64,000 bases of DNA from an uncultured Acidobacteriota bacterium. GTDB lineage: Bacteria; Acidobacteriota; Thermoanaerobaculia; UBA5066; Gp7-AA6. Below the pieces are notes generated by a model. The model had not been told where the DNA came from. It saw only the letters and a program-made list of their open reading frames with translations, and did not search any database. Of this stretch, positions 29,524 to 59,884 are shown piece by piece. The stretch is taken from the NCBI GenBank assembly GCA_963739435.1, contig CAVUAN010000005.1:168128-232127 (forward strand), read 5' to 3'. Within the stretch, counting starts at the first letter, position 1. Each line of letters opens with the position of its first letter. The translations under genes were made by a program, and so were the position numbers.

Positions 29524-30429
29524 TTAAGGCTTCGTGCCCGCGACCGAAACCGGAAACGGCCCGATCCGGAGGTCCACCAGGCCGGATTCGAGAAACCACT
29601 TGCGAACCTCCGGCTCGGTGTGCGTCCACTGAAATCGAGGCGAATACCAGTCGAACGTGTCGAGGACCCGCCACTCGGGATCGGGGTGGCCCGACATCGG
29701 CAGTAGCCACCGGAGGGGCAGGGTGACGATCCGAGGGCTCCGAATCCTTCCGAGGCGATCGGCCATGCGGCTCCACCGAAGGAGCTGCTCCTTGGGCATC
29801 CGGGTCGTTCCGAGGCGATAGAACACGCTCATGAGCGTTCGCCACCGCAGCGAGCGCGGATAGACCCAGATCGCGATCCGTCCGCCGGGGCGAAGGTACG
29901 GGGGAAGCGCTCGGAACGCGTCGCGGGTGCTCGGCGTGTGATGGAGCACACCGACGCTGTAGATCGCATCGAATGTCTCTGGCGCAAAGGGAAGCGAGAA
30001 CAGGTCCGCCTGGACGACGGCGGCGTTCTCGAAGCGCTCCAGGTTGACGGCCGCCGCCTCGACCGCCTGCGAGAGATCCACACCGACGACCCGCGCGCCG
30101 GCGCCGGCGACAACCTCCATGAAACGCCCCATCCCGCACCCGACGTCGAGGATCGTCTTCCCGCGGAGATCAGCCAGGGAAAGGCCCGTCTTGGCGACGA
30201 ACGTGTCTCGAGATTCCGTCGTGCCGGCGGCAGAATCGAGCTGTGTCCGAGTGAAAATGTTCCATTGATATCCGAAGGTCGTCGCATAGGCCTCGGCCTC
30301 GACGAATCGAGGAATGGACCGAACGATCGGATAACGGCCGCCTTTTCCGACCAGGCTCTCGCCGTCCCGACGCAGGACACTGCCGTCGGCCGGATCCCGA
30401 AGCAGCTCCGCTAGCCAGCTTTTCATCAT
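29524..30429 (-). CDS. Class I SAM-dependent methyltransferase with N-terminal Trm112-like segment
   Basis: I trimmed the ORF to the ATG at 30429 (ATGA junction). Motif I is [24 protein letters not shown] and [12 protein letters not shown] are also present. Confidence 0.75.
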
Positions 30430-37889: not shown

Positions 37890-37927
37890 GAGGGCCGCGG
37901 CGCTAGGCCGCGGCCCTCTTCATTTTT
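37890..37927 (+). terminator. Rho-independent terminator after A1 (lies between convergent genes)
   Basis: A 12-bp perfect stem (GAGGGCCGCGGC / GCCGCGGCCCTC, 5-nt loop) is followed by TTCATTTTT. Confidence 0.7.
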
Positions 37928-40088
37928 GCGGCGGGTCCCCGCGCCGGTTCTTTCTCTTTTCCGCCTGCTCCTGCAGCGCTCGCTCGAGATTGTTCCGGGC
38001 CATCGTCAACCCCGGTTCCAGCCGGAGAGCCTCTCGGTACTCCTCGATGGCCGCTTCCCGGTGCCCCCCCAGGAAGAACGCGTAGCCGAGGTTGTTGTGA
38101 GCCAGGGCGAAACCCGGATTGATGCTCAGGGCCAACCGATACTCGGCCGCGGCCTCGTCGACCCGAGCTTCCTGGAGCAGGAGGCTTCCCATGTCGTTGT
38201 GTGCCTCCGCAAACGCCGGAAAGAGCTCCAGCGCCTGCCGGAGGTGATCGAGCGCATCGACTTTCTTCCCCCGACCCTGAAGCGCGAGGCTCGCGTTCCG
38301 ATGGGCCGCGGCCAGAAATCTGCGCATCTCCTCGGCGGCGGGATCGGCACTTCTTCGATCGAGAGCACGCGCGCCGTCTAAGAGATGGCGGTAGTCTGCC
38401 TCCTGCGGGGCCCGGAGGACGGTACGCTCGAGTTGATCAATGGCTGCTGCCGTCTGTCCATCCACCAGGAGGGCGATCCCGAGCCTTGCCCTGGTCTCTG
38501 CCCAATCGGGAGCCAGACGGGTGGTCGTCTGGTAGAGCCGGACTGATTCTGAGATTTCGCCTTGTTGGAACCGCGTCCTTGCGAGGTTGTTCATGGCGAC
38601 CGGATCTCCCGGCGTCAGGCGAAGGGATTCGGTGAAATGCTGCGCCGCTTCGTCGAACCGGCCCAGTAGAAAAAGAGACCGGCCGAGGTTGGTGTGAACC
38701 TCGTTGGCCTCCGGACGGAGGCGCAAGGCCTCGAGGAGATGGGGCAGAGCGTCCGCAGGCCTGCCCAGCTCGTTGTAGTAGTCGCCCAGATTGGTCCGCA
38801 CGATCGGATTGCCCTTCGTGACCTCGAGGGCGTGGAGGTAAAGGGTCTCGCTGTTCTGCCAGATGCGCGCCTGCCTGGCCGCAAACAACGCCAGAGCAGC
38901 CAGGGCAGCCGCGGCGGCCATCCGGAACGCCAGGTCTCTGTGCCGCCAGGCCAACGGGACCTCCGCAACGCCCCAGGTGATCGCGATGAACAGGCCGACA
39001 AAGGGAAGATAGGTGTAGCGATCGGCAAGTGCCTGCAGGCCCACTTGAACGAGGCCGATGACAGGAAGAAGAGTGATGACGAACCAGAACCATCCGACGA
39101 AAAGATATGGGGCGCTTCGCCGGAAGACGACGGCCGCCGCCGAAACGGCGGCGAGCAGAAGCGCGGCGCCGATGACTTTCCAGGCGGGCAGCGAAGTCCC
39201 CGGATGCGGGTAGAAGACAGCCAGGTTGGTGGGCCAGAAGAGCATGCAGATGTAGCGGACATACGCGACGAGCGCGTTCCCGACGCGAGTCCACAAAGGA
39301 AACTTTTCGAAAGTGCCGAGGGCTCCCCCGGCCCGCTGAGCCACCACGGTCACAACCGAGGAGGCCGCAGCCATCAGGAAGAGAGGAACTTTCTCGAGGA
39401 CTCGTGGCGCCGCGCCACCGCCGTATCTCGAAAGAGGCCAGTCATCGAGAAGAAGCAGCACCACCGGAAGCGAGACCAGCATTGGTTTCGACATGAGTCC
39501 GGCTGCGAACAGGCCCAACACAATCAGGTAGCGGCCGACACCGCGCCGGCGGGCCCAGGAACCATAAGCCCACATCGTCGCGAACCAGAAGACGGCGCTG
39601 AGCAGATCCTTCCTCTCCGCAACCCAGGCGACCGACTCCACGTGCGCCGGATGGACCGCAAAGAGGGCAGCGACAAAGGCACTGCGCCAGGAGTCGGTCG
39701 TCAGGCTGTGAAGCGCGCCGAAGAGAAGAAGCGTAGCGACGACATGCAGCAACAGACTGGTTGCATGATGGCCCGCAGGGTTCAATCCGAAGGCCGAGAC
39801 GTCCGCCATGTGCGAGAGCCAGGTCAGGGGATGCCAATTGGCTGCGTACACCGTCGTGAAGGCCCACCGGAGGCCCGCCCATGTCAACCCTGCGCCGACG
39901 GGGTCGTTTCGCGTCACATAAGAGTTGTCGTCAAAGTTGGTGAAGTCGCTTCGCAGGACCGGCCACAAGGTCGCTACAGAAAGAGAAACGAGAAACAGAA
40001 CAGGGAGGAGTAGTCGGACCGCCTTCGAACCGCTCGGAGAGCCAGCCCGGTCGCGATCAAGCCGATTTGCTGCACGGCGACGCGACAA
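37920..40088 (-). CDS. TMTC-like GT-C-fold glycosyltransferase with C-terminal TPR array
   Basis: The N-terminal half is polytopic and contains the family-typical ..SDFTNFDDNSYVTRNDPV.. and ..ANWHPLTWLSHM.. The C-terminal ~330 aa are tandem TPR repeats. The start is TTG at 40088. Confidence 0.75.
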   Translation of the reverse strand: MSRRRAANRLDRDRAGSPSGSKAVRLLLPVLFLVSLSVATLWPVLRSDFTNFDDNSYVTRNDPVGAGLTWAGLRWAFTTVYAANWHPLTWLSHMADVSAFGLNPAGHHATSLLLHVVATLLLFGALHSLTTDSWRSAFVAALFAVHPAHVESVAWVAERKDLLSAVFWFATMWAYGSWARRRGVGRYLIVLGLFAAGLMSKPMLVSLPVVLLLLDDWPLSRYGGGAAPRVLEKVPLFLMAAASSVVTVVAQRAGGALGTFEKFPLWTRVGNALVAYVRYICMLFWPTNLAVFYPHPGTSLPAWKVIGAALLLAAVSAAAVVFRRSAPYLFVGWFWFVITLLPVIGLVQVGLQALADRYTYLPFVGLFIAITWGVAEVPLAWRHRDLAFRMAAAAALAALALFAARQARIWQNSETLYLHALEVTKGNPIVRTNLGDYYNELGRPADALPHLLEALRLRPEANEVHTNLGRSLFLLGRFDEAAQHFTESLRLTPGDPVAMNNLARTRFQQGEISESVRLYQTTTRLAPDWAETRARLGIALLVDGQTAAAIDQLERTVLRAPQEADYRHLLDGARALDRRSADPAAEEMRRFLAAAHRNASLALQGRGKKVDALDHLRQALELFPAFAEAHNDMGSLLLQEARVDEAAAEYRLALSINPGFALAHNNLGYAFFLGGHREAAIEEYREALRLEPGLTMARNNLERALQEQAEKRKNRRGDPPQK

Positions 40089-45632: not shown

Positions 45633-47402
45633 CTACTGGAAGTAGCCGTTGACGTCGACGACGACGTGGGCGGTGCCGGAGCCCTGCTGGCAGTAGATGG
45701 TGACGGAGCCTGGCCCGCCGAGCGGCATGATGGCGTTGTTGGCCCGGGTCTGTCCCGACTTGTAGTTGATCGTCGCGGCCTGGGGCAGATCGGAGACCCC
45801 GGGCCGCATCGTCAGGAAGCCCGGGCCCGCCGTGGGCTGCGTCACGGCAACGTTGAGCGAAACGGCTGTCGCTGTCGGAGGGATCCCGCACTGCCCTGCA
45901 AGGAGGAAGGTACGATCCGCTCCGTCGTTGAGGGCGGGTCCGCCGTACGGCCCGTCAACGTCGCGCGTATCCACGACCCGGCACGGCTGGACAGTGTAGA
46001 AGCTCGGCGTCGGGCCCGCCGTTACCGGGGCGCACGCGGAAAACTCCGACGTGTCACTGAAAACGTCCGTCGACGTCGCCGTTACGACCGAGCCGGGCGC
46101 GAGGCTCGCCATGAATAGCCCCGAAAACGTCCCGTTGCAGGACGAGTCGGTCGCCACGAGCATCGACCCGATGTAGGTCTTTCCTTCGCCATTTCCGGAC
46201 GCGTTGCAAGATGGCGAAGTGAAGAACTCAAGCGTGTAGAGGGCGTCCGGCTCACTATTCAGCGTCCCGTCGATCCGCACCTGGCTCCCGATCTGCGTCG
46301 CTTGAGTTAGCACCGGAAAGTTCAACAGCAAGTTGGGGCCCGTGTCCGCGTCGCAGGGATCGTTGGGCGTAACGCCAGGTCCCACGCCGCCCACCAGATC
46401 GATGCCCAGACCATTGCCGAAGATCGCGTTCCTCGAGATCGGGTTGCGCACCGATGTCCCGTCGATGGACACACCGGTGCCGTTGAAGGCGATCACGTTA
46501 GCCCCGGCGCCTCCTCCCACGATGGTCCGGCTGCCCGTACTAATGTGTACGCCGGCAAGCTGGCTAGGCAAGGAGCCCTGGCCCAAGGCGTCCGGCCCGA
46601 TTGTGTTGCCCTGAATCGTGACGTCGTTGACGCCGCTGATGTCGATCCCGTATGCGTTGTTGCCGGAAATGAGATTCCCAAAACCGGGGAAAGGTCCCCC
46701 GATCAGTGTTCCGGTAGCGGAAGAGAAGTAGACGAAGATGCCAGTGAAATTAGGAACGGCAGCCGTCCCGGCGGCGTTTGTCCCAATCCGGTTGCCCACG
46801 ATCAGCGCCAGTCCCTGCGCCCAGATTCCGTAATTATTTCCCGAAATGAGGTTCCCCTCGCCGGGCGAAGTGCCGCCGACGGTTGGTCTGTAGGAGCTGT
46901 TCTGAACAATCACCCCGATGCCGTTTGGTCGAGCGAATTGCCCCGTGGGATCCGTCCCGATGAAGCTGCTCACGACCTTCGCGTCCCCTTGCAGGTAGAT
47001 CCCAGCATTGGGGCAGTTGTTGATGACGACGGCCCTGACGACGCTCGACCACCCAAAACCCATACAGGTATAGCCAGCCGGCAGAAGACTTCCGTCGATC
47101 TGGATCAGCGGAGTCCCGGCGTAGCCCGGCTGCGTCGTTCCGTCGACGATCACGGTCCCGGCGACGCCCAGGCCCCCCGATAACGGGCGAATCGTCTTGA
47201 CGCCCGTGCCGATCGAGAAGGCGACTGTTCCACCCGGAAAGCCATCGGCATCAGCCAGTGCCTGCCGCAGCGAGCCTGGTCCCGAGTCGTTCGTGTTGGT
47301 CACGGTATAAATCGCTGCAGCGGCAGTTCCGGGCGCAGCCAGGGCGAGCACGAGCACTAGCCCGAGGCGCAAGAGAGGGCCCGTAGTCGGCTTGACCAGC
47401 AC
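45633..47402 (-). CDS. Secreted right-handed beta-helix protein (CSLREA-type N-terminus) with C-terminal two-Cys module (B1)
   Basis: A signal peptide is followed by IYTVTNTNDSGPGSLRQALADA. Repeated ..GN.I.GN..GI.. beta-helix turns follow. The C-terminus is FYTVQPCRVVDTR...VVVDVNGYFQ*. Confidence 0.8.
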   Translation of the reverse strand: MLVKPTTGPLLRLGLVLVLALAAPGTAAAAIYTVTNTNDSGPGSLRQALADADGFPGGTVAFSIGTGVKTIRPLSGGLGVAGTVIVDGTTQPGYAGTPLIQIDGSLLPAGYTCMGFGWSSVVRAVVINNCPNAGIYLQGDAKVVSSFIGTDPTGQFARPNGIGVIVQNSSYRPTVGGTSPGEGNLISGNNYGIWAQGLALIVGNRIGTNAAGTAAVPNFTGIFVYFSSATGTLIGGPFPGFGNLISGNNAYGIDISGVNDVTIQGNTIGPDALGQGSLPSQLAGVHISTGSRTIVGGGAGANVIAFNGTGVSIDGTSVRNPISRNAIFGNGLGIDLVGGVGPGVTPNDPCDADTGPNLLLNFPVLTQATQIGSQVRIDGTLNSEPDALYTLEFFTSPSCNASGNGEGKTYIGSMLVATDSSCNGTFSGLFMASLAPGSVVTATSTDVFSDTSEFSACAPVTAGPTPSFYTVQPCRVVDTRDVDGPYGGPALNDGADRTFLLAGQCGIPPTATAVSLNVAVTQPTAGPGFLTMRPGVSDLPQAATINYKSGQTRANNAIMPLGGPGSVTIYCQQGSGTAHVVVDVNGYFQ

Positions 47403-47458
47403 AGGAATCTAGCTCGATCCTGTTCTCGCCGTACCGGTTACGTCAAGAGGCAATGCCC

Positions 47459-49096
47459 CTACTGGAAGTACCCGTTCACGTCGATGACGACGTGGGCGGT
47501 GCCGGAGCCCTGGGTGCAATGGATGACGATGCCGCCCGAGGTTCCGAGGGGCACGATCGCGTCGTTGGCTCGCGTTTGCCCTGTCCCGTAGTTGATCGTC
47601 GCGATGGAGGGAAGCAACGAGCCGGCGGGATAGAAAGTCAGGAAGCCGGGCCCGGTGGACGGCTGCGTGACGGCCACGTTGAGCGACACCGAGGTCGCGG
47701 TCGGAGGGATGTTGCACTGGTTCGCAAAGACGATCGTGCGATCGCCACCCGCCGAGAGCGCCGGGCCTCCGTAAGGTCCGTTGGCCAGGCGCGTGTCGGC
47801 CACCCGGCAGGGGGTCAACGTGTAGAAGCCGGCCGCGGAGGGAGGCGCGTACTCGTAGCAGCCGATGTCGTAGCCGATTCCGACCGGACGCGCGCGGCCC
47901 TCGCGGTCTGAGGGCACGTTCGGCTGCGTCTGCCCCGCATCGATTCCCGGGGAGCCCGACTTCAGATGGTAGTCCGCCCCCGGGTTGACAACGAGATTCA
48001 CCAGCGCCGCCGAGAGCGAGTGCGGCTCGTGGCCCATTCCTTTCCATGTCGCGAGGACGATCCGGGTGCCGCCGTCGTCGGGCGACACCGCATCCATGAT
48101 GTTGTAGTCGCTGTCGGCGTCGGCGACGTCCGTGGCGTCCCCGAACACGATTCCGCCGTGACTCGGGTTGTTGTTGAAGAGGATGTTGTTGCGAATCGTG
48201 TTGGTGCCCGTCGAGGCGTGGAGCAGCAGGGCCCAGCGCCCGTTCGCGGCCATGTCGATCGTGTTGTTCAGGATCTGCATGCCCTTGGGCCCCGCGGTGC
48301 CGTCGATCTGGAAGCAGGCGATGCCGGAGGCGTGGTTGTTGTAGAGCAGGTTGTTGCGCACGATCGAGTCCTGAACGCCGTCCAGGTTGATCGCCGCTCC
48401 CCCGGCCGTCCCGTTGTTCCAGGCCACGTTGTTCTCGATCAAGGCGCCCGTGATCAGGCCGTCTCCGCCCTGGGACGCGTCGGCGTTCAGCTGGATTCCG
48501 CAGCCGGCGTTGTCATGGACGCGATTCCCTCGCACGGTCGGGCGATCTCCGGAGTTGGAGACATAGATGCCGTGCTGCGAGCCGCTCGCGTAGCACTCGT
48601 TGTTCTCGAGCAGGAGGTCGTCGGCAAAGTCCGTGAAGATCCCCCACGTGGCGTTGTTGCCGTACACGCCGTTCTTGACCGTGACGTGGTCGCTCTGGTC
48701 GATGCGGACCGCGGCGCGGTTGGCGTTGAACGCTCGCAGTCCTTCCAGGACGACGTAGGACGAGAAGAGGACGTGGATCGTGTCCCGGTTGTCGGAGCGG
48801 TCTCCCGTCGTCGTGACGACGGCGCCCTGGCCGACAGCCTGGATCGTGAAAGGAAGGGAGACGGTCCCGGCCATGCTGTCGAGGTCAAAACCCAGGTAGC
48901 TGCCGTCGGCGACGAGCACCGTGTCGCCGGGATGTCCGACCGAGATCGCCTTGCGGATCTGCCGGAAGGGCAGCGCCTGCGACCCGCTGTTGGAATCGCT
49001 GCCCGAAGGCGAGACGTAGAACGTCCCCGCGGCGGCGAGCTGCGCTCCCGCCAGAAGGATCCCGAACGCGGCGGCAACCTTCCGCTTACTGGAAAT
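47459..49096 (-). CDS. Secreted right-handed beta-helix protein (pectate-lyase-fold-like) with C-terminal two-Cys module (B2); start uncertain
   Basis: Beta-helix repeats are present (NNECYASGSQHGIYVSNSGDRPTVRGNRVHDNAGCGIQL ... NNLLYNNHASGI...). The C-terminus is FYTLTPCRVADTR...VVIDVNGYFQ*. The signal peptide SSKRKVAAAFGILLAGAQLAAAG has no ATG, GTG or TTG in front of it. The nearest candidate start is ATT at 49096. The track start at 49219 would overlap B3 by 134 nt. Confidence 0.7.
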   Translation of the reverse strand: MSSKRKVAAAFGILLAGAQLAAAGTFYVSPSGSDSNSGSQALPFRQIRKAISVGHPGDTVLVADGSYLGFDLDSMAGTVSLPFTIQAVGQGAVVTTTGDRSDNRDTIHVLFSSYVVLEGLRAFNANRAAVRIDQSDHVTVKNGVYGNNATWGIFTDFADDLLLENNECYASGSQHGIYVSNSGDRPTVRGNRVHDNAGCGIQLNADASQGGDGLITGALIENNVAWNNGTAGGAAINLDGVQDSIVRNNLLYNNHASGIACFQIDGTAGPKGMQILNNTIDMAANGRWALLLHASTGTNTIRNNILFNNNPSHGGIVFGDATDVADADSDYNIMDAVSPDDGGTRIVLATWKGMGHEPHSLSAALVNLVVNPGADYHLKSGSPGIDAGQTQPNVPSDREGRARPVGIGYDIGCYEYAPPSAAGFYTLTPCRVADTRLANGPYGGPALSAGGDRTIVFANQCNIPPTATSVSLNVAVTQPSTGPGFLTFYPAGSLLPSIATINYGTGQTRANDAIVPLGTSGGIVIHCTQGSGTAHVVIDVNGYFQ

Positions 49097-49550
49097 AGCC
49101 GGTCGCGTCGATGACGAGATGGGCCGTCGGGCCCACGCCCATCGCCGGGTACACCGAAACCTGCAGCGACGGGTCGGCCGCAAGGGGCGCAATCGCTCCG
49201 TTGGCGATCGCCGGCTCATTCGGGTCGAAGTTGATCGTCGCCACCAGCGGCATGGTCGTGTTGTACGGCCAGACCCGCAGGTTGCCGCCGCTCGTCGGAC
49301 CGACGATGACGACGTTCAACACGGCCGCCTGGGCCGTCGCCGGGATCCCGCAGGTGCCTCCCGTGATCGGGAACGACCGCACCACGTTTCCCGCCAGAAT
49401 CGGGCCGCCCGTCGGGCCGACCGGCCCGCGCGTGTCGACCAGCCGGCATGGCGTGATCGAGTAGAACTGGAAGGGCCCGCCCGCCGGCGCCGACGAGGCC
49501 AGCAGAATGACCACCACCGACAGAAGAATCGACCGGAGTACGCCTCTCAT
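49086..49550 (-). CDS. Stand-alone secreted two-Cys module protein (B3)
   Basis: The 154-aa product is a signal peptide plus the module only (GPFQFYSITPCRLVDTRGPVGPTGGP...TCGIP...HLVIDATGYFQ*). Confidence 0.8.
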   Translation of the reverse strand: MRGVLRSILLSVVVILLASSAPAGGPFQFYSITPCRLVDTRGPVGPTGGPILAGNVVRSFPITGGTCGIPATAQAAVLNVVIVGPTSGGNLRVWPYNTTMPLVATINFDPNEPAIANGAIAPLAADPSLQVSVYPAMGVGPTAHLVIDATGYFQ

Positions 49551-49558
49551 GGAACCTC

Positions 49559-51437
49559 CTATTGGAAATACCCGTTGACGTCGACGACGACATGGACCGT
49601 GCCCGAACCCTGCCCGCAGTGAATGATGAGATCTGTGTTGACACCCAGGAGCGTGTTCACATTGTTACTGCGCGTTTGACCCGACTTGTAGTTGATCGTC
49701 GCGGCCGACGGCAGCGGAGCGCCCACCGGATAGAGCGTCAGGAAGCTCGGGCCCGTCGTCGGCTGCGTCACCGCCACGTTCAAGGACACGCCCCTGGCTC
49801 CCGGCGGAATCCCGCACTGGTTCGCAAACACAAACGTCCGATCCGCTCCAGCCGCGAGCGCGGGCAAGCCATACGACCCATTAGCGATGCGCGTGTCGAT
49901 CACCCGGCAAGGCGGCACCGTGTAATAGCCGACGTTGTTGGTGTAGGTGAAGGCGTTGGGAAGCGCCGCCGCCTGCGCGTCCGGGTTCGTCACCGTCACG
50001 CCGACGGTTGCAGCGCTGCCCGCCGGAGCCGTGGCCTGGAGAGTCGTCGAGTTCGACGAAGGTGCTCGAAACCGACGCGGCTCCGAAGGCAACCGTCGCG
50101 CCCGAGACGAAATTCGTGCCGGCGACCGTAACGAGCGTCCCCCCTGCCGTCGGCCCGAAGTTCGGCGTGACGCTCGTGACCGTCGGCGCCGGCAGCGGCG
50201 CGCACGAGGTGAGCCCGTCGCCGTAGATCCACCGAATGGCGTCCTGATCGTCCGTGCCCAGCGTCGTACGGTTCTGTACAAGCCAGTACATGGTCGCGCT
50301 GCCTTCATCTCCCGGGCAAACGTCGTGCGGTGAGACAACAGTATTGGCCGGGTTCTGCTCGCCCGAGTGGCCGAGACCGAGAGTGTGACCGAGTTCGTGA
50401 GTCACGACGGACTGCATCGTCACTGAGCCGTAATCATTCAGATTGCAGAGAGGGCGTACCCAGACCTTCCCGCTGGTGATCGTCGAATACGTTTCGCCTC
50501 GCCAGGAATGGGATCCTGATAAGGTCTGCGGTCCTCCACAGCCGATGACGCCGGCACCCGCCAAGCAGGTCGACCACCCGCAGGGCGAAGTCGGCGCCGC
50601 GAGGTCGATTATGTTCCCCGAGCCAATTGTGAAGCTGATAGTCGAATCGGGATCGTTCGTCCAGGCGGCCAAGGCACCAATAGCCTCGGCGGTCCCGCCA
50701 CCCGTGATGTTCACTGAGTTCTGCAGCACCCACGAAGCAGTCGGCGGGTTCCACCGAACAAGGCTGGTGCTGCCGTAGATGTTGGACCACTCCGGCTGGA
50801 TTTGCATTCCGCCGGCGACCACATGGACGACGGGGACAGCCGTCCCTGGGGACGGCAGTCGACCGAGTCTCCCGCGCTCCCAATCGCAGCGATCGCAGCA
50901 TCGCCGACAGCTCGCGGGCGGGGTCCGTCGAGAGCGGCGCGTCAGTCTCAAGCCGCTTGCGGCGCGGCTGCACCGTGACCTGCGCATGACCTACCGCGAG
51001 AGCCGGCACGGCGAACGCCACACCGCGCTCGTCATTCTGCACTTCGAACTTCCCGAGCAGCATCTCCGACGTTTGATACTCGCCCTGCACGCGCGCGATC
51101 GCAAAGACAATGACCTCGCGACCGGGGACGTACTCCGGCGCGCCCCACAGCTTGAAGGAACGCCCGTCGGGCAGCTGCCCGCCCAGTTGGTGCAGAATCA
51201 GTGGCCCCCGCAGGCTCCCTTTCAAGACCTCGATCGGCTCAACGACCGTGAGCATCTCGGGCCGGCCCTCGCTCGTCTACAGTCACGTCGCTCGAGACGA
51301 CGATGCCGTGCACGATGACTTGGGACCGGTCGTAGAGCTCCTATCGCTGATCGGGATGATCGAAGTCGCAAGCAACGCTGACGCCCGCGATTGAGGCGAG
51401 CAGAGCCCCCGACAGCTCCCTGCGAAAACCGTGTCAT
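49559..51437 (-). pseudogene. Metzincin-type zinc metalloprotease + IPT/TIG domain + C-terminal two-Cys module (B4), at least four reading-frame disruptions
   Basis: - The ATG at 51437 forms an ATGA junction with B5.
- Lipoprotein-like signal ..ALLASIAGVSVAC.
- HELGHTLGLGHS zinc site.
- IPT/TIG domain PTVTSVTPNFGPTAGGTLVTVAGTNF.
- C-terminus YYTVPPCRVIDTR...VVVDVNGYFQ*.
- These segments lie in different frames (ORFs 50434..51255, 49881..50987, 49559..50338) and there is an in-frame TAG. Confidence 0.65.
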
Positions 51438-53586
51438 TGGTAATACCCGTTGACGTCGACGACGACATGGACCGTGCCCGAACCCTGCCCGCAGTGAATG
51501 ACGAGATCTGTGTTGGCACCCAGGAGCGTGTTCACATTGTTGCTGCGCGTTTGACCCGACTTGTAGTTGATCGTCGCGGCCGCCGGCAGCGGCGCGCCGA
51601 CGGGATAGAGCGTCAGGAAGCTCGGGCCCGTCGTCGGCTGCGTCACGGCCACGTTCAGGGACACGCCCTTGGCTCCCGGCGGAATCCCGCACTGGCTTCG
51701 CGAAGACGAACGTCCGGTCCGCTCCCGCCGCGAGCGCGGGCCCGCCATAGCGGCCCGTTGGCGTTACGGCGTGTCGATCACCCGGCACGGCGTCACCGTG
51801 TAATAACGCCGACGTTGCTGTTGTAGGTGAAGGCGCTGGGGAGCGTCGCCGCCTGCGCGTCCGGGTTGGTCGCCGTCACGCCGACGGTTCCAGCGCTGCC
51901 AGCGGGAGCTGTCGCCTGAGCGTCGTCGAATTGACGAAGGTGCTCGGAACCGACGCGGCTCCGAAGGCAACCGTCGCGCCGGACTGGAAATTGGTACCCG
52001 CGACTGTAACGACCGTGCCCCCGGCCGTGGGCCCGAAGGTCGGCGTCACGCCGCCGATCGTCGGCGGCGGAACAACGATCGAGTAGGTGTAGGCAATCGG
52101 CAGCGTACCGGTCTGGAAGTCCGGGTTCATCACGAGCGACGTCCACCAGCCCCGCCGCGTGCCACGAGTCGTCGCGGTAATGCTGCGGCGCCGACCGTCC
52201 CACGCCACGTTCACGCCTGCCGCGACATCGCCGATCGTGACCGTGGCGCCCGCAGACGAAGTTGCTTCCCGCTGATCGTGACCGGTGTCCCGCCGGCGAT
52301 CAGGCCGGAGGGCGGGCTCATCGTGGAGATCGACGGTCCCGGCCCCGTGCCGAGGCAGGACGCCGACCGAATTCTCCACGAAGTTTCGGATCCGGGTCAG
52401 GACCGCCGGCTGGTTTCCCCGGGTACGCCCAGGTAGAAGTTCGAGAGCGGCATAACCCCCGATGAGGTGGCAGTAGCTCATGATCGTGCCGAGCTCGCGT
52501 GGCACGCTCGTGGGGCCGCTGTAGCCGGAGCCGCCTTCACCCGCGTAACACATGTCGACCGGAGGGATATAACAGTGCGTGTGCGGTGAGCTGAAGTTGT
52601 GCCCGATCTCGTGCGTGACGACGAGAATGTGCGAGTCGAGACCCGGGTTCGTGGTGGAGAAGGATCCGTTCAGGCTGCCGCTCACGCCGTAGCCCAGGCC
52701 TCCGCAGATCTGGCTGAGGTATGCGACACCGCCCCCGAGGCCGCGCATGCTGAGCATGTGCGCCGTGCTCCGCGGGACGGCGGTACGGTTCGTCTGCCAG
52801 TAGGAGAGAACTCGCTCAGCGCGCCGGAGGAGTCTCCGGCCGTCCAGGGGTCGGCGGCCGTCGTCCAGAGGGCAGAGGTCGTGACCCTGGAGGACGACTT
52901 CGACGTCGCGCTGATAGATCGCACTGGCCGCGGCGAAGAGATCGGACACATACTGCGTTGCGCCGGAGACCGAACCGAAGTTGGCGTAAAACTCGTAGTC
53001 GGTCTCGAGGGCCACGCTCGCGTAGTAGACGGTGTTGGAAAGCGGTCGAGGCTGAGCGAGGGTGCGCAGCACCTTGGTCGTCGACGGAGGCTCGGGAAGC
53101 GATTCGGTCCCGCATCTCCACGAGCGCATGCTCTCCGGGACTTCGAGATCGGAAGTCAGGGTGTGCAAGCGCGGTCCATGCGTCGGCCCGCGATAGGCGT
53201 CCGTGTAGGGGGCGAGGACGATCAGCCGGCCCGCCCGTGGAGATCATGCCGCGCGGGCTTTTCTCGCCCGCGAGAAGGACAACGCGACTGGGGATCGCCC
53301 GCGACCTGCCCCGACGAAATACGGATCGGACGTGAGAGGTGAGGTCGTGTCCCCGGAGTCACGAGTGGATCACCAGCTTCGCGTCGGCTGTGAAGGGCTC
53401 AAAGCGCGTCAGGTCCAGCGTGATCTCGGTCCCGTCCTCCGAGTAGCACGTTCCGGCTCTGGAGCTTCGCGCCGGACGGAAGCGGGCTCGAAAGGGCGGT
53501 GAGGAGACCGGCATCCGGTGCGTGCAGGAAGGCCCCGCCGCGCAAGCGAGCAGGAGCCCGGCCAGCAGGATCGGTCGCAACTTCAC
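51434..53586 (-). pseudogene. Reprolysin-like zinc metalloprotease + two IPT/TIG domains + C-terminal two-Cys module (B5), many reading-frame disruptions; N-terminal boundary uncertain
   Basis: The zinc site is HEIGHNFSSPHTH. IPT/TIG segments are PSISTMSPPSGLIAGGTPVTISG and PTIGGVTPTFGPTAGGTVVTVAGTNF. The tail YYTVTPCRVIDT...CGIPPGAKGVSLNVAVTQPTTGPSF...VVVDVNGYYQ* is scattered over three frames. The lipoprotein-like ORF 53359..53586 (MKLRPILLAGLLLACAAG..) may be its true N-terminus. Confidence 0.55.
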
Positions 53587-53707
53587 TGTCTTACCCCCAG
53601 AATGGCCCTTTTCTAAGCAAGTTCCGTTCCCCGGGTAAGGCAGCCTAACTAGCTGAGCCCGAATGGCTTCCGAGGCGCCCCGAAAGGCGAATTGACAAGC
53701 ATCGTCA

Positions 53708-55390
53708 CTATTGGAGGTACCCGTTGACGTCTATGACCAGGTGGGCCGTTCCGGCCCCCTGGCCGCAGAACACCGTGGCCTCCCCGAGAGGCCCCAGTGG
53801 CACGATCGCGTTGTTGGCGCGGATCCTCCCCGCGTTGTAATTGACCGTCGAAGCGAGCGGCCGCGGCGAGCCGCCCGCCGTCAGGGTCAGGAAGCCGGGG
53901 CCGTTGGTCGCGTTGACGACCACGATATTGGCCGACACCCACTTCGCGCCCAATGGAATCCCGCACTGGCCCGCGAACACGAACGTCCGAGTTGCTCCGG
54001 CCGAAAGCGGCGGACCGCCGTAGAGACCCTCCGCTCCGCGCGTGTCCAGCACCCGGCACGGAGGCACCGTGAAAAACTGCAGCGCCGAGGGCGTGGGCGT
54101 CGGGGGCGGGCTCCCGGGGTGCGTGAGCCGGTAGAACCCGCCGCCGCCGGTGCCCAGGTAGATCTCCCCCACGGAATCTTCGCCGAACGTCTGCAATCCG
54201 GGCAGAGTCGGCGTCAGCAGTTGCCCGTTGCCCCAGAGATTGCCGGAGCATTCGTCGCCGTAGAGATACGTGCCGTAGAGGTTCAGGTCCTGCGATCCCC
54301 GATACACGTATCCCCCGATGATCGCGCACCCGAAGCTGTGGTCGTACTCGTAGACGGGCAGCGTGTAGCTCGGGTCGCCACAGATCGGCGGAACGGGGCT
54401 GCACCCGTTGCTGCCGTCCGCGCCGCAGATGCTTCCCTCCATCACCTTCCAGCCGTAGTTCTGCCCGCCGGCGCTCGACTGCGGTTGAAAATCCACCTCT
54501 TCCCGCGCGCTCTGTCCGACGTCGCCGATCCAGAAGTCGCCCGTCGCGCGGTCAAACGAGAAGCGAAAGGGATTCCGCAGGCCCTTCGCCCAGAAAAGAT
54601 TGCGCGGAAAGGGCGAGCCCGCGAAGGGATTGGACGCCGGAATCCCGTAGAAAGGCGACACGCCGACGTTCTGATCGACGTCGATCCGAAGCATCTTGCC
54701 GAGCGCAACGGCGTCGTTCTGCGCGTTGCAGGGCGGATCGTTGCCCGAGCCGCCGTCGCCGGTGCCGATGTAGAGGTAGCCGTCGGGGCCGAACTGAAGC
54801 TGGCCGCCGTTGTGGTTCGCGTTGATCGGGTGCGGGATCGTCAGAAGAATCGCCCGCGTCGTCGGGTCGGCCCGGTTGGCGTCCGAGGCCATGCGCTGGT
54901 AGCGGACGATCTCGATATCTCCGGCCGTGTTGGTGGTGTAGATGAAGAGATAGCCGTTGGCCGCGTACTGCGGGTGGAAGGCGACCGACAGCAGCCCGCG
55001 CTCTCCGCAGCACGAGATGAGAGTCGACACATCGAGAAACGGCGTGGAGAGAATGGCCCCGCCCGAGTAGATCCGGATCTGCCCGGACTGGATCGTCAGG
55101 AAGAGGCGGGAGTCCTTGGCGTTCGTGATCGAGGTGATCGAGCCGAGCCCGGAGGTCAGCAACTGGAGCCCTATAGAGGGTGGCGCGGCCGGCGAAGCCT
55201 GGATGGCCCCGGCGCGGCCGGAACGAACCAGCAGCGCGGCAAGCGCCAGGGCGAGGGTAAGAGCGAGGGCGAAGGCGCCCCGTCGCCTGAACCGACGCCG
55301 CATACCTTTCGAAGCGTCGTCCCGGAGGGTTTCCGCCAGTCCCGGCCATCCGAGCCTCGCGGCAATCATCCGGGCCCAATCGAGGTCCAT
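53708..55390 (-). CDS. PQQ-dependent sugar dehydrogenase-like beta-propeller (sGDH/sorbosone dehydrogenase family) with C-terminal two-Cys module (B6)
   Basis: Family-like segments are ..ERGLLSVAFHPQYAANGYLFIYTT.., HNGGQLQFGPDGYLYIGTGDGG and GLRNPFRFSFDRATGDFWIGDVGQ. The C-terminus is FFTVPPCRVLDTR...LVIDVNGYLQ*. The ATG at 55390 has a GGGAGG Shine-Dalgarno sequence. An alternative ATG at 55303 lies just before the hydrophobic segment. Confidence 0.8.
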   Translation of the reverse strand: MDLDWARMIAARLGWPGLAETLRDDASKGMRRRFRRRGAFALALTLALALAALLVRSGRAGAIQASPAAPPSIGLQLLTSGLGSITSITNAKDSRLFLTIQSGQIRIYSGGAILSTPFLDVSTLISCCGERGLLSVAFHPQYAANGYLFIYTTNTAGDIEIVRYQRMASDANRADPTTRAILLTIPHPINANHNGGQLQFGPDGYLYIGTGDGGSGNDPPCNAQNDAVALGKMLRIDVDQNVGVSPFYGIPASNPFAGSPFPRNLFWAKGLRNPFRFSFDRATGDFWIGDVGQSAREEVDFQPQSSAGGQNYGWKVMEGSICGADGSNGCSPVPPICGDPSYTLPVYEYDHSFGCAIIGGYVYRGSQDLNLYGTYLYGDECSGNLWGNGQLLTPTLPGLQTFGEDSVGEIYLGTGGGGFYRLTHPGSPPPTPTPSALQFFTVPPCRVLDTRGAEGLYGGPPLSAGATRTFVFAGQCGIPLGAKWVSANIVVVNATNGPGFLTLTAGGSPRPLASTVNYNAGRIRANNAIVPLGPLGEATVFCGQGAGTAHLVIDVNGYLQ

Positions 55391-55519
55391 GGGCCCTCCC
55401 GGTGAGCCTCAATTATACAAGCCGAGACGATCTTCCTCAGGGGGGTTAAGGAAACACTAGGGGGCAGGGCGGAGGCCCCGTGGGCCGCCAGCCTGCCCCC
55501 CAAGAACGAAGACGGCGAT

Positions 55520-55990
55520 CTACTGGAAGTAGCCGGTCGCGTCGATGACGAGATGGGCCGTCGGGCCCACGCCCATCGCCGGGTACACCGAGACCTGCAG
55601 CGACGGGTCGTTCGCCAGAGGAGCAATCGCTCCGTTGGCGATCGCCGGCTCATTCGGGTCGAAGTTGATCGTCGCCACCAGCGGCATGGTCGTGTTGTAC
55701 GGCCAGACCCGCAGGTTGCCGCCGCTCGTCGGACCGACGATGACGACGTTCAACACCGCCGCCTGGGCCGTCGTCGGGATCCCGCAGGTGCCTCCCGTGA
55801 TCGGGAACGACCGCACCACGTTTCCCGCCAGGATCGGCCCGCCCGTCGGGCCGACCGGCCCGCGCGTGTCGACCAGCCGGCACGGCGTGATCGAGTAGAA
55901 CTGGAAGGGGCCGGCGCCGTTCGTCGAGCTGGAGACGAGGAGCGCGACCACTCCGATTGCCAGAACACCGAGGGACGATTGCTTCTTCAC
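55520..55990 (-). CDS. Stand-alone secreted two-Cys module protein (B7), near-duplicate of B3
   Basis: The GTG start at 55990 follows GGAGG, 9 nt after the B8 stop. The mature part differs from B3 at only 2 residues. The signal peptide is unrelated to that of B3. Confidence 0.8.
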   Translation of the reverse strand: MKKQSSLGVLAIGVVALLVSSSTNGAGPFQFYSITPCRLVDTRGPVGPTGGPILAGNVVRSFPITGGTCGIPTTAQAAVLNVVIVGPTSGGNLRVWPYNTTMPLVATINFDPNEPAIANGAIAPLANDPSLQVSVYPAMGVGPTAHLVIDATGYFQ

Positions 55991-55999
55991 GCCGACCTC

Positions 56000-58900
56000 C
56001 TACTCAAAGTAGCCGTTGACGTCGAGAACGAGGTCCATGGTCCCCGCTCCCTGGTTGCATTTTACCGTGATTGTGCCGCCCGGCCCGAGCCTGACAAGCG
56101 AACCCTTCGACCGGGTTTGGCCCGTATTGTAGTTGATGGTGGCCGTGATCCCAGGGGTGGACCCGCCCGCGACGATCTGCAGGTTGCCGCCGCTCGTCTC
56201 CCCGGTGGCGGCCACGTTGACAACGATGGCCTGGGCCGTCGAGGGGACGCCGCAATTGCCGGACACGATGAAGGTCCGCGAGGCGCCCGCTGCCAGGGAG
56301 GGCGTGTCCGTCGTCCGGGTATCGATCAAGCGGCAGGGGGTGACGGTGAAGAAGTTGCCGCAGCTGGCATTGATGGCCACGTTCGCCGTGCCGCTCGCGA
56401 AACAACCCGCCGCGTTCGACACCCCTACGCCGAGGACAACGGGGCCGGCAGACGGGTCGGCGCTGAATGTGATCGAAGCGAACCCGGCTCCCGAAGTGAT
56501 GACGCCGTTTGTAATGGTCCAGACGTAGCTTGCGCCCGGGCCGGCGTCGGGCACCGAGGCCACGTTCGTCGTGGACTCGGCGCAGACGACGGAGGGAGCT
56601 GTGATCACCGCCGAGGGCGCCGGGTTGACGGTCACGTTCGTCGTCGCCGGGTCGCTCGAGCAGGTGCCGATCGTGGCCACGACCGTGTATGTGCCCGAGG
56701 CCGCCGCCGTCGCCGAAGGAATCGTCGGGTTCTGAGCGGACGAAGTGAACCCGTTGGGGCCCGTCCAGGAGTAGGTCGCCCCGCCAATCGTCGAGGCGGT
56801 GAGGTTGAGAGTCGAGCCGGCGCAGATCGGCCCGTTGTTGCCCGCCGTGGGCGCCGCCGGGCGGCCGCCGTCGTTGTTGTCGAGCAGACCCGAAATCGTC
56901 ATGTTGTAGCTTGCGCAGCCCGTCGTTGCCACTTCATGGATGACCGTCGTGAAGGACGCTCCGGCCGGGACATTGAACGACCAGGTCGCCGTTCCTGCGA
57001 AGCTCGAGCCGGGATCCGCCAGGTAGTTCGTCTGGATGTTCGCCGGATCGAAGGGGCCGAGATAAGTCACGTAGAAGATGTTCGTTCCGCAACCCGACGT
57101 GACCTGCGTGGTCACGCAAACGGGCGTGCCGAGGGTATTCGTGTACGTGTAGGCGTCGTACCGCCGCAGAACGGAGTCAAGATTGGCCGGCGTGGCGTGG
57201 GTCGCCGAGCAGGTCGTGCTGACGCCATTTCGGGACAGACGGCCCGTCTGCGTGGGGTCGCCCGCCGCGATGCTTCCATTGACCGAGATCGGGAAGCCGC
57301 ACGTCGGAAGGCTGAACAGCAACGGTGTCGATCCGGCCGAGGACGTCACGGTGAGCGTCAGGTCGATGTTCGTGCCGCAAACGAAGCCTGGGGACGTCGC
57401 GATCTGGAAAGGCGTCGTGTTGCCAGTCGCCGATCCCGCGGAGACATTCGGATAGCCGGAATTGGGCTGAACGACCGTGACGCCGGGTGTCGTGGTTGAG
57501 AGAACTCCGGAGATCGCGGTCCCGACGGCGCAACCGACGTTGTTCAAGGGGATATTGACCTTCACGCACTCGTTTCTGTTGATGACGCCATTGTTGTTGC
57601 CGCCGGAGTCATCGATGGAAGCCGTTCCGAGCGAGAACGCAGCCGTGCCCGCCAGGACGAAGTTCCTCGTCGTCACGGCCCCGTTGTTGATCGTTGCGCC
57701 GACGGAGGCGGAAGGCGTGCAGCCGGGCCGCAGCGGAGCCGATGCTGTCGCGTTGACGGCGCCCGGCGGGAGAACGATCGTGTAGATGCCCAAAGAATTC
57801 GTGGCGCCCGAGAAACCATTGTCCAGGTTGACGAGCGCTCCCGGAATCGGCACGCCGAGTCCGTCCTTCACAGTGCCGGTCAGAGTTCCCTTCGCGGGCG
57901 GGGAGCACTCCGCGGGCCCGAAGCGGAAAGCGCCGATGCGGGTATTCCAGTTGAAGCTGCCATTGGCCGGCTGATACTGGTTCGTGTACCAGAATGTGCA
58001 GCCGTCGCGGGGGTCGACAGTCATCGCCGAATAGTCGCCCCAGCGGTTGGCCGTTCCGATCTGCACACCGCCGCCGGTCTTCATCACGGTCTCTGTTCCG
58101 AGCGTGCCCAGCGGATCGCTCGAGAGACGGCCGACGACGTCGATCTCGGGGAGAACGGCGGCGGAGGACTTGCTGTACCCGAGCGCTATGTTGCCGCTGT
58201 TGTCCATCGCAACGCTTCCCATCCACCGGTGATTTGCGTCCGGGGCGTAGGTGCCCTGCTGGAAGACCGTCTCAACGCCGCCAGGCAGGCGAATCTCGTA
58301 CCAGCGGGGAGCCGCGTTGTTGAGCGCCTGGGGAGACGCAAAGGGGTTCGTGTTGACGGTGTCGGAAAGCACGATCGACTCGAAGGCCCCGAAGTTGCGG
58401 TAGGCCACCCGGTTCATCAGGCGGCCGGAAATCGCGTCGACGTTAGTTCCCCCCGGGGGCTGCGGAATGCAGCCGCGATTGAAGTCGCACATGTCCGTGT
58501 TGTACACGGTAATGCCCGGCATATCGGTCGGACCCGTCAGCGTGGTCGCCGGTATCGCGCCCCAGGTGGTCGTCGCCGTCCAGACGTGGAGAGTCGCTGA
58601 TCCAAGCGCCGTCGTGCCGTCCCATTCGAAGGAGCCGGGCGCGAAGATGCGCTCCGGCGTGGTCGCGGGCGGCGGTGTGAGGCCGTCGAGATCAGCAGGA
58701 AGTGCGCCGAAGTATGTGAACGTCAGGTCCATGGGAGTCGGGACCACGCGCGCAGGCAAGCCGGCGAGCATCGCCGGGCGCTCGAACGCAGCGAGCCCCT
58801 GGAAGAGGAAGGCCGTTCCCGCTCCGTTGAAGACGTGGTACGTGGAGTAGTAGGCGTCCGGCCAGACACCGTGGTGGGGATAGTCCCAGAATTGATTGGT

Positions 58901-59884
58901 TCCGAGAGGAAAAGCGTAGAGATAGTAAGCGCCGAGCGGATCACCCGTAACCGAGACCGCGGTGCACTGATAGGAGTCCAGGCTCGCCCCGACTTGCACG
59001 GCGAACTGGGTCAGGATCCAGCGGTCCGCCAGGTTGTCGTAGACGACGAGCGGATCGCCGTCATTGAAGACCACACAGGGCGACGACGGGCCGAGTGCCG
59101 TGAAGAGCGAGTTGCCGGCCGAGGGCCCGTAGAGCAGGGTCCCGCTCTTATCGAAGATCGCGAAGTTCACGTTGATCCACTGGACGTAGTGGTTGGGTCC
59201 GACCCGGCCGTTGTTGTCGGGCGGCGCGAAACCATTTGCCGGAAGGCCGTCGAAATTCACACCGGTCGGCGTCAGCAGCGAGGGTCCCGGAATCTGCTGG
59301 ATCGCTCCGTCCGGCCTGGTCGGGGCGTTCCCAGTCGCCCGGTTGTGGCGGGTGGGGAGGTCCCGGTTCTCGACTTCGGTGTTGGGGTCCGCCTCGACGG
59401 GCCTGGCCGGGATACTGCGCAGCTCCGGTGAAAGCACGGGGACGATGGGGTCGCTCACCTTGACGCGCGAGAGCTCCGCGAGCTCTGCCCTCGAGTATTC
59501 CCTGTGATTCTCTTCGCCGCTGCCTTCGCCGCCGGCCCCGACGCGGCCCGCCATCGCTGCCGCCGCCGGGCCGTCGGGCGAGGAACTGGCGGGACGTGTC
59601 GCACGAGCGGGCTTGACCGTTCTGGCTTTGGAAGGCGTTGTCGCTGTCGTGCTCTGAGGCCGATGAGCTGCCGCGACGGCAGCCGCGATCGCCTTGGCTT
59701 TCGCTTCCTTGTCGGGCGCTGCCACCGGCTCGGGAGCCGGGGCGATCTCGACGACAGATGGAGGTGAAACCGAGCTGGCCAGCTTCGGCCCGCTCGCCCG
59801 ATTCATCGTGAGGATGCCGGCGCCGAGCGCCACACCTGCGACCAGGACGATCGCTGTTGCTAAAATCCGGCGAGTCCCTTTCAT
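56000..59884 (-). CDS. Large (1294 aa) multidomain surface protein with C-terminal two-Cys module (B8)
   Basis: - I trimmed run-through ORF 56000..60910 to the ATG at 59884 (MKGTRRILATAIVLVAGVALGAGIL signal/anchor).
- An Ala/Pro-rich spacer follows.
- A large unassigned globular region follows (..RWGDYSAMTVDPRDGCTFWYTNQY..).
- A CarboxypepD_reg-like segment follows (GTLTGTVKDGLGVPIPGALVNL).
- P-domain-like and Ig-like (ATYSWTGPNGFTSSAQNPTI) segments follow.
- The C-terminus is FFTVTPCRLIDTR...LVLDVNGYFE*. Confidence 0.8.
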   Translation of the reverse strand: MKGTRRILATAIVLVAGVALGAGILTMNRASGPKLASSVSPPSVVEIAPAPEPVAAPDKEAKAKAIAAAVAAAHRPQSTTATTPSKARTVKPARATRPASSSPDGPAAAAMAGRVGAGGEGSGEENHREYSRAELAELSRVKVSDPIVPVLSPELRSIPARPVEADPNTEVENRDLPTRHNRATGNAPTRPDGAIQQIPGPSLLTPTGVNFDGLPANGFAPPDNNGRVGPNHYVQWINVNFAIFDKSGTLLYGPSAGNSLFTALGPSSPCVVFNDGDPLVVYDNLADRWILTQFAVQVGASLDSYQCTAVSVTGDPLGAYYLYAFPLGTNQFWDYPHHGVWPDAYYSTYHVFNGAGTAFLFQGLAAFERPAMLAGLPARVVPTPMDLTFTYFGALPADLDGLTPPPATTPERIFAPGSFEWDGTTALGSATLHVWTATTTWGAIPATTLTGPTDMPGITVYNTDMCDFNRGCIPQPPGGTNVDAISGRLMNRVAYRNFGAFESIVLSDTVNTNPFASPQALNNAAPRWYEIRLPGGVETVFQQGTYAPDANHRWMGSVAMDNSGNIALGYSKSSAAVLPEIDVVGRLSSDPLGTLGTETVMKTGGGVQIGTANRWGDYSAMTVDPRDGCTFWYTNQYQPANGSFNWNTRIGAFRFGPAECSPPAKGTLTGTVKDGLGVPIPGALVNLDNGFSGATNSLGIYTIVLPPGAVNATASAPLRPGCTPSASVGATINNGAVTTRNFVLAGTAAFSLGTASIDDSGGNNNGVINRNECVKVNIPLNNVGCAVGTAISGVLSTTTPGVTVVQPNSGYPNVSAGSATGNTTPFQIATSPGFVCGTNIDLTLTVTSSAGSTPLLFSLPTCGFPISVNGSIAAGDPTQTGRLSRNGVSTTCSATHATPANLDSVLRRYDAYTYTNTLGTPVCVTTQVTSGCGTNIFYVTYLGPFDPANIQTNYLADPGSSFAGTATWSFNVPAGASFTTVIHEVATTGCASYNMTISGLLDNNDGGRPAAPTAGNNGPICAGSTLNLTASTIGGATYSWTGPNGFTSSAQNPTIPSATAAASGTYTVVATIGTCSSDPATTNVTVNPAPSAVITAPSVVCAESTTNVASVPDAGPGASYVWTITNGVITSGAGFASITFSADPSAGPVVLGVGVSNAAGCFASGTANVAINASCGNFFTVTPCRLIDTRTTDTPSLAAGASRTFIVSGNCGVPSTAQAIVVNVAATGETSGGNLQIVAGGSTPGITATINYNTGQTRSKGSLVRLGPGGTITVKCNQGAGTMDLVLDVNGYFE

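Follow-up and report, generated by a model that had tools for sequence, protein, structure and literature searches.

An Acidobacteriota gene array that places one tail module on unrelated exported proteins: a possible docking or anchoring domain working in threes

The 64,000-nt stretch of contig CAVUAN010000005.1 analysed here in full (the window), which originates from an uncultured Acidobacteriota bacterium, carries an array of eight co-directional minus-strand genes (B8 to B1 in the order of transcription, 45633-59884) whose products end in, or consist of, a module of approximately 120-129 aa, referred to below as the tail. The results obtained point, with slightly less than even confidence, to a module for docking or anchoring that operates in threes and not to a plain secretion tag, a glycan being the likeliest target. 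The component of this reading in which we are fairly confident is that the module works as a unit of three.

Searched with a profile of the tails, the window yielded 12 copies of the module, all confined to the interval from 36.2 to 56.4 kb; the E-values of the intact copies range from 7e-56 to 9e-30. Six of the copies are C-terminal, in B1 (45636-46004, E 7e-56), B2 (47462-47833), B4 (49562-49933), B5 (51437-51700 plus a shifted fragment), B6 (53711-54082, E 8.7e-51) and B8 (56003-56356, E 5.5e-42), and two are free, B3 (49089-49472) and B7 (55523-55906), all eight lying on the minus strand; the other four occupy the N-termini of the products of the plus-strand genes A1-A4 (36227-36583, 40521-40874, 42250-42597 and 43999-44349). 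The first-pass annotation of this DNA had described one tail placed on different heads, and this description is borne out by the homology of the 12 copies in the profile search and by the assignment of the heads to unrelated Pfam families. As far as sequence comparison goes, the tail is a transferable module carried by unrelated heads.

In the order of transcription, B8 (56000..59884, minus strand, as are all B genes) is an intact open reading frame (ORF) of 1294 aa with an N-terminal signal anchor, in which an N-terminal region of about 500 aa with no family match precedes CarboxypepD_reg, Ig and PKD_6 domains (Pfam) and then the tail. It is followed by B7 (55520..55990), a free module that consists only of a signal peptide and the tail domain, and by B6 (53708..55390), which joins a signal peptide, a β-propeller of the glucose/sorbosone-dehydrogenase type (Pfam GSDH, E 2.4e-33) and the tail. 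Two proteases come next: B5 (51434..53586), which is disrupted in the assembly, combines a reprolysin-like metalloprotease with TIG and the tail, and B4 (49559..51437), which extends over three reading frames, combines a matrixin-like metzincin (HELGHxxGxxH) with the same two elements. B3 (49086..49550) is the second free module; B2 (47459..49219) contains a right-handed β-helix (Pfam), a choice-of-anchor Q domain (aa 413-457; NCBIfam NF041518, 35.9 bits against a cut-off of 25) located directly before the tail, and the tail itself; and B1 (45633..47402) carries a signal peptide, a NosD-like β-helix and the tail. These Pfam assignments agree with the heads described earlier for B1, B2, B4, B5, B6 and B8, while the label "CSLREA-type" once given to B1 found no support in NCBIfam. 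The earlier spacing was recovered, with gaps of 9 nt between B8 and B7, 8 nt between B4 and B3 and 56 nt between B2 and B1, and with the B5 stop codon and the B4 start codon overlapping as ATGA. A scan of the window for promoters and terminators performed no better than chance in setting operon boundaries.

The copies share the motifs F-Y-T-V-x-P-C-R-x-x-D-T-R, C-G-I-P, L-N-V and I-N-Y and a terminal D-V-N-G-Y-F-Q; in pairwise comparison, the cargo tails are 35-88% identical, B3 and B7 98%, and A-type copies share 26-36% of their residues with B-type ones. The cysteines of the PCR and CGIP motifs are invariant across the family, consistent with a disulfide-bonded exported domain. A third cysteine, within the motif x-C-x-Q-G-S/A-G (45690-45710 in B1, for example), was observed in the tails of B1, B2, B4, B5, B6 and B8. 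It is present in about two-thirds of the single-copy cargo-type relatives and missing from the free modules, the A-type domains and the triple tandems described below, and could provide an unpaired thiol for intermolecular bonding.

The tail of the window proteins matched no family of Pfam, NCBIfam or PHROGs, and 32 diverse relatives matched none of Pfam or NCBIfam at E≤10. A sequence search of the PDB with the tail profile gave no match either (the top entry was SoxY, E 0.12), and a full-text search of the literature found no description of the domain. At the same time, a profile of the window copies recovered 33,419 clusters (50% identity) at E≤1e-3 and 8,527 at E≤1e-30, and 522 of 596 candidate stretches on contigs from one genome per species were confirmed as family members. 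The counts of genome context given here were taken from the 79 best loci, almost all of which belong to Acidobacteriota (Thermoanaerobaculia, Holophagales, Terriglobia and Bryobacterales), with single cases from Chloroflexia and Methylomirabilota; the nearest relatives of the window proteins are encoded in Thermoanaerobaculia metagenome-assembled genomes. Across the family, the heads are diverse and include proteases, GH16, GDSL lipases, propellers and Ig/PKD/BACON domains.

An AlphaFold2 model of B7, computed from 32 sequences, contains eight β-strands with a predicted local distance difference test score (pLDDT) of about 93 over the domain, and the module is accordingly modelled as an eight-stranded jelly-roll. 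Foldseek searches with the single domain (PDB and BFVD) returned weak matches, with template-modelling (TM) scores of 0.3-0.5, to bromovirus coat proteins, Ena endospore-appendage subunits, ExsFA, satellite virus coats, CBM6, CBM4, heads of collagen-repeat proteins and tail fibres.

The evidence for a unit of three comes from copy numbers and from a predicted structure. In the 79 loci, 158 ORFs contain one full copy, 14 contain three, and only 2 contain two; among the 150 best-scoring representatives, three copies were found in 122, six in 13, nine in 2, four in 10 and five in 3. The triple form comprises more than 6,333 relatives, none of them annotated, with heads that include DUF11, TIG, BACON, GH16, GDSL lipase and propellers; such tandems were found in Terriglobia and Bryobacterales, some of them in internal positions, and the cultured Bryobacterales strain F-183 has this form in its protein P0331. 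The natural protein P0192, in which three tandem copies follow an N-terminal stretch of about 20 residues, was predicted with a pLDDT of 91.7 and a predicted TM score (pTM) of 0.89, a value that implies a fixed arrangement of the three domains, and the copies are predicted to pack as one rigid body. No global analogue of this triple model was found by Foldseek (TM ≤0.21), the archaeal-virus "triple jelly roll" giving a TM score of 0.18. Moreover, position-specific models assigned held-out domains of the triples correctly in 72 of 77 cases for position 1 and 75 of 77 for position 2; the triple is thus passed on as a cassette of fixed order.

The free modules form at least 20 orthologous clusters of proteins of 154-157 aa with 66-100% identity. 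Both B7 and B3 begin directly after the stop codon of the cargo gene, with a GGAGG ribosome-binding site ahead of them, and since each of the two has this site, a signal peptide and conserved orthologues, they are not fragments. The succession of a cargo gene and a free-module gene was found in 10 further cases in 7 other loci, with three in a row in locus L010. Within one genome, the copies of the free module are nearly identical (98.4% in the window, 100% in L002, 97.7% in L004 and 92.2% in L001), whereas the identity between genomes is only about 70%, which looks like homogenisation of one common subunit. In the window, the mature parts of B3 and B7 are 96% identical in nucleotides and 98% in amino acids, and the identity tract (49087-49486 versus 55521-55919) covers exactly the mature domain and the stop codon, while the signal peptides and upstream regions differ; this pattern suggests gene conversion or strong homogenising selection. 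Among the cargo tails, those of B8 and B6 have closer orthologues in L002 (77 and 69%, with heads that are 57 and 75% identical, respectively) than paralogues in the window, and those of B1, B2, B4 and B5 are closest to one another.

Additionally, stop-free frames of about 122 aa, with a G+C content at third codon positions of 0.91-0.93, were seen on the strand opposite the free modules (55533-55898 and 49099-49464, plus strand), and antisense ORFs of this kind were met again in 40 related loci. Rather than being genes, they most likely result from the codon bias of a high-GC genome.

A polysaccharide cluster (7620..35763, minus strand; Pfam) adjoins the array. It encodes four GT4/GT1 glycosyltransferases, a GDP-mannose 4,6-dehydratase, epimerases, two methyltransferases and an AsnB fragment, together with a flippase of the MurJ/Wzx type (NCBIfam murJ_mviN, below the curated cut-off) and unannotated membrane proteins. 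The association of the array with glycan genes, to which the first-pass annotation had drawn attention, is kept in three relatives. Locus L006, with a head identity of about 72%, contains a free module, a GSDH-like protein, a B2 orthologue, an A-type protein, MurJ, a methyltransferase and a glycosyltransferase; in L003, a GDP-mannose dehydratase gene adjoins an A-type gene and tail genes; and L084 has the gene order of the window, MurJ included, with fewer A genes and without B1. The families recurring near the tails in the 79 loci are all glycan-related, namely, PMT_2-type GT-C glycosyltransferases (15), GT1/4 (14), epimerases (8) and Wzt-type ABC ATPases (6), counts that lack a background control, and no recurrent candidate for an export or attachment machinery was detected beside the tail genes in these loci. 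Given this conservation of the gene neighbourhood, the most plausible target of the module is an envelope glycan.

A mechanism that would unite these results can be proposed. The B genes encode exported proteins with unrelated catalytic or adhesive heads, each fused to one module with a predicted eight-stranded jelly-roll fold and a probable disulfide. In Terriglobia and Bryobacterales, three modules are present on one chain and are predicted to pack as a single rigid body; in the lineage of the window (probably Thermoanaerobaculia), each cargo carries one copy, and the three would be supplied by separate chains, a free copy being encoded immediately after some cargo genes in translational coupling. 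The tails of different chains would then assemble, the free modules possibly filling vacant positions, and the resulting three-module body would provide a varied exoproteome with a shared means of docking or anchoring. Its target would be the envelope glycan produced by the neighbouring, syntenically conserved polysaccharide cluster, and the fibre-like A proteins would likewise use the module, at their base. We infer the oligomerisation of single tails, the binding of glycan and the surface display. Co-assembly of cargo tails with free modules seems to us nearly as probable as its opposite, and a glycan as the ligand of the module is a more doubtful proposition.

An anchoring role is favoured over catalysis or substrate targeting because the tail sits at the position of an anchor and the range of heads is broad; the location of the tail after the choice-of-anchor Q domain in B2 supports such a role as well. 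Two more specific functions had been put forward in the first-pass annotation. Homotypic docking has gained indirect support from the occurrence of one or three copies, the rigid predicted triple, the recurrent pairs of cargo and free module and the homogenisation within genomes. The anchoring of the proteins to a glycan draws its support from context, that is, from the MurJ, methyltransferase and glycosyltransferase genes beside the array in L006 and L084 and from the dehydratase gene in L003. A still wider proposal, which we consider rather unlikely, is a display system of the Acidobacteriota's own, in which a secreted adaptor (the free module) and single tails would form a three-module body that plugs the exoproteome onto a dedicated envelope glycan, with a fused single-chain version in Terriglobia and Bryobacterales; it would be a counterpart, unrelated in fold, of the SLH/secondary cell wall polymer or cohesin-dockerin systems.

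Several observations weigh against docking in threes on a glycan. The route of the proteins across the outer membrane is left unexplained, and the fold matches to the lectin-like CBM6 are weak (TM 0.34-0.40). A free module lies directly downstream of only two of the six cargo genes. The pseudo-three-fold symmetry of the triple would follow from the pTM value alone, and the tails of the window score equally on all three positions of the triple (differences ≤5 bits), so a simple origin from a "split triple" is unsupported. The numbers of glycan families near the tails were obtained in Acidobacteria, which are rich in such genes. Finally, part of the array may be non-functional, given the disruption of B4 and B5.

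Four other explanations were weighed against this reading. The likeliest of them, and itself quite unlikely, regards the tail as a lectin similar to a carbohydrate-binding module (CBM) that would target secreted enzymes to an environmental polymer and not anchor them to the cell. It would account for the jelly-roll fold with the matches, weak as they are, to CBM6 and CBM4, for the presence of GH16, lyase-like β-helices and BACON among the heads of the family, and for the tandem arrangement, multiplication of this kind being common among CBMs. However, many of the heads are proteases, dehydrogenases, lipases or pure Ig/PKD arrays, the strict rule of one or three copies and the rigid triple are atypical of CBMs, and neither the free modules, paired with cargo genes and homogenised within genomes, nor the module at the N-terminus of fibre-like proteins would be expected. 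Next in rank, and improbable, is a self-assembling block resembling a capsid protein or an Ena pilin, with free modules that would polymerise into a lattice or fibre, cargo tails that would co-polymerise and heads displayed on the polymer. Bromovirus coats, Ena2A/3A, ExsFA and satellite virus coats are the best fold matches of the module, the distribution of the third cysteine (about two-thirds of cargo-type tails and none of the free modules) would agree with co-polymerisation, and there is more than one copy of the free-module gene; yet every fold match is weak (TM 0.3-0.46), and sets of three that are closed within a single chain speak for an oligomer of closed form and against open-ended polymerisation.

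The third explanation in this ranking, improbable as well, is that a dedicated machinery recognises the tail, and possibly removes it, as a C-terminal signal for secretion or sorting comparable with the C-terminal domain (CTD) of the type IX secretion system (T9SS). Of the 158 single copies, 138 end no more than three residues before the stop, their terminus D-V-N-G-Y-F-x being conserved; a signal peptide is present in every intact cargo protein; the B2 tail directly follows a choice-of-anchor Q domain; and the diversity of heads is like that of T9SS cargo. What speaks against a pure secretion tag is, in large part, the argument already made in the first-pass annotation, which the family data strengthen: the module occupies the N-terminus of A1-A4 and of another 11 ORFs in relatives, it exists as free proteins with conserved orthologues, and it forms triple tandems whose copies are predicted to pack rigidly, some of them internal. 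Moreover, no sorting-signal model of NCBIfam or Pfam matched the tail, and the 79 loci provided no recurrent candidate for the machinery. The last explanation, which we hold to be very improbable, supposes that the glycan cluster and the TPR-bearing membrane protein would glycosylate proteins, with the module serving as the acceptor or recognition domain. This multi-pass protein is indeed embedded among the A genes, PMT_2-type GT-C genes occur near the tails in 15 of the 79 loci, and the glycan cluster is conserved beside the array; however, the membrane protein of the window matches no GT-C family, the co-occurrence counts are without background control, and the rule of three and the free modules would be left unexplained. 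Docking or anchoring in threes is thus the reading retained here, at the tentative level stated at the outset.

The four A proteins, encoded on the plus strand, are fibre-like. A1 (36047..37867) has a signal peptide, the N-terminal module, a Gly-rich middle part and a phage-related C-terminal domain, and the same architecture is found in A2 (40338-41990), A3 (42073-43758) and A4 (43789-45588); A4 and B1 are convergent, with stop codons 44 nt apart. The N-terminal domains of A2, A3 and A4 are 76-87% mutually identical. The C-terminal domain matches phrog_17490 and phrog_28536, both function-unassigned PHROGs, and shows 29-35% identity to cyanophage proteins and to a "tail fiber-like" protein of a Flavobacterium phage. 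Between A1 and A2, a minus-strand gene (37920..40088) encodes the multi-pass membrane protein with about nine hydrophobic segments and TPR repeats; its membrane part has no family match, and its layout resembles that of TPR-bearing GT-C glycosyltransferases. The region at 36000-48000, which comprises the A genes, the gene of the TPR membrane protein and B1, has a G+C content of 0.63-0.655 versus 0.66-0.70 in its flanks and may be of different origin or more recent acquisition.

The earlier picture of eight intact genes has to be revised, as B4 and B5 are frameshifted in this assembly and had been read through silently. B4 is split across three reading frames and requires 3 frameshift corrections. 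Relative to B4, B5 has at least 5 indels in the last ~240 nt, plus a premature stop inside the tail, and its lipoprotein-like signal peptide begins at GTG 53586, in yet another frame. L084, the contig of a related strain, has about 90% nucleotide identity over the array and an intact B4 of 618 aa; at the same time, there are 105 gaps in 6.2 kb between it and the window, and its own B8 and B5 are broken, so at least one of the two assemblies is indel-rich. Between the window and L084, the head of B4 is 64-69% identical in protein, whereas the part with TIG and the tail is 91% identical; the tail of B4 would thus seem far more conserved, or more recently exchanged, than its head. In the polysaccharide cluster, fragments were observed at 9042-9659, 12035-12814 and 17191-17658 (the C-terminal part of Polysacc_synt_2, an incomplete epimerase and the final third of an asparagine synthase), which means that frame disruptions are not limited to B4 and B5 and favours assembly indels or a wider gene decay in the contig.

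Two further reading frames call for comment. The "overlap" of B2 and B3 noted earlier depends on ATG 49219, a start that would add an Arg-rich stretch of about 45 residues read across B3 in the wrong frame, and could not be upheld. There is no in-frame ATG, GTG or TTG before the B2 signal peptide KRKVAAAFGILLAGAQLAAAG (window 49060-49100, minus strand); there is an in-frame ATT overlapping the B3 end (TATTTCCAGTAA), and the B2 start region is alike in L083 and L084, with single-base differences. Either B2 uses a non-canonical start or the sequence contains an error, and the true start is probably near 49085. At the other edge of the array, an open frame shared with B8 extends upstream of the B8 ATG (59885-60673, minus strand) and translates to MSIRKRKDGVYVIRYYADGTK...; a candidate identification as the N-terminal part of a phage-type integrase found no family support, with no match in Pfam, NCBIfam or PHROGs, and no tRNA gene is present in the window. 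This frame may be a degraded mobile-element remnant. The outermost genes of the window (619-4552 and 61197-63879, both minus strand) encode subunits of a xanthine-dehydrogenase-type molybdoenzyme, an amidohydrolase and an amino-acid permease; they are genes of ordinary metabolism with no relation to the array.

Few bacteria are as abundant in soils as the Acidobacteriota, and to our knowledge, little has been established about how their extracellular enzymes are retained and arranged. A family of more than 33,000 clusters that has neither a Pfam or NCBIfam model nor a solved relative appears to be a common handle of much of the acidobacterial secretome. If docking in threes or glycan anchoring proved true, it would represent a new display system, provide a sequence marker for predicting the surface proteome and exoproteome of Acidobacteriota, and offer a compact self-assembling tag for protein engineering. 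The question is open to a direct test with two small proteins, a free module and one tail, or with one natural triple.

Of the known systems, SLH/CWB2 triplets, the T9SS CTD and cohesin-dockerin pairs come nearest in logic, and trimeric jelly-roll fibre heads and CBM6 in fold class. The SLH triplets, which bind secondary cell wall polymer, and the CWB2 triplets of Clostridioides difficile resemble the tail in that one non-catalytic module is carried at either end by many unrelated exoproteins and the genes lie near those of the glycan, bound in these systems and presumed for the tail; their three modules form one body, an arrangement that the tail may share, given its copy numbers and the rigid predicted triple. 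SLH is, however, a helical motif of about 55 aa and CWB2 an alpha/beta domain, while the tail is a 120-aa disulfide-bonded jelly-roll, and the tail matched no SLH or CWB2 model of Pfam, 32 members having been searched at E≤10. Furthermore, SLH systems are without single-copy cargo combined with a separate free module, and the hosts considered here are diderm Acidobacteriota, in which glycan binding is presumed. The T9SS CTD of Bacteroidota (Por_Secre_tail) is likewise a β-sandwich (about 80-120 aa) that forms the very end of many unrelated secreted enzymes and adhesins, on the C-terminal side, and their genes are often clustered. Unlike it, the tail also occurs in N-terminal, free and triple form and so does not obey the rule of an exclusively C-terminal position; no match to Por_Secre_tail or TIGR04183-type models was found in the window proteins or in 32 family members at E≤10, and the 64-kb window contains no T9SS machinery genes. 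The tails end in D-V-N-G-Y-F-Q without a hydrophobic helix, and no NCBIfam PEP-CTERM model matched them.

The cohesin-dockerin pairs of the cellulosome also equip diverse enzymes with one small docking module whose partner is encoded nearby. The partner proposed here would be homotypic and not a distinct cohesin, and the fold is all-beta; the tail has no Dockerin_1 match and no Ca-binding EF-hand repeats, and a scaffoldin with repeated receptors was not found. Trimeric jelly-roll heads of fibres (C1q/TNF-like domains, the BclA C-terminal domain and phage fibre tips) are domains of about 120-135 aa that come in threes on fibre-like proteins, and weak fold matches to the heads of viral collagen-repeat proteins were in fact obtained. 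The likeness is nevertheless one of fold class (TM ≤0.5) with no sequence match, the module is N-terminal in A1-A4 and is attached to enzymes too, and C1q/TNF gave no Pfam or PDB sequence match and was not among the top 50 fold matches in the PDB. CBM6 is similarly a β-jelly-roll appended to enzymes, sometimes in tandem; the Foldseek matches to it are weak, with E-values of 5e-3 to 2e-2 at the TM scores given above, Pfam gave no match, and the spectrum of heads is atypical. The link to the Ena pilins is at the level of fold (Ena2A/3A, TM 0.33-0.45), with no sequence match. The failed model matches, the position rule of sorting domains and a fold unlike those of SLH and dockerin therefore place the tail outside these families, and probably outside CBM6 as well; by analogy, it may still work in the manner of the known docking and display systems.

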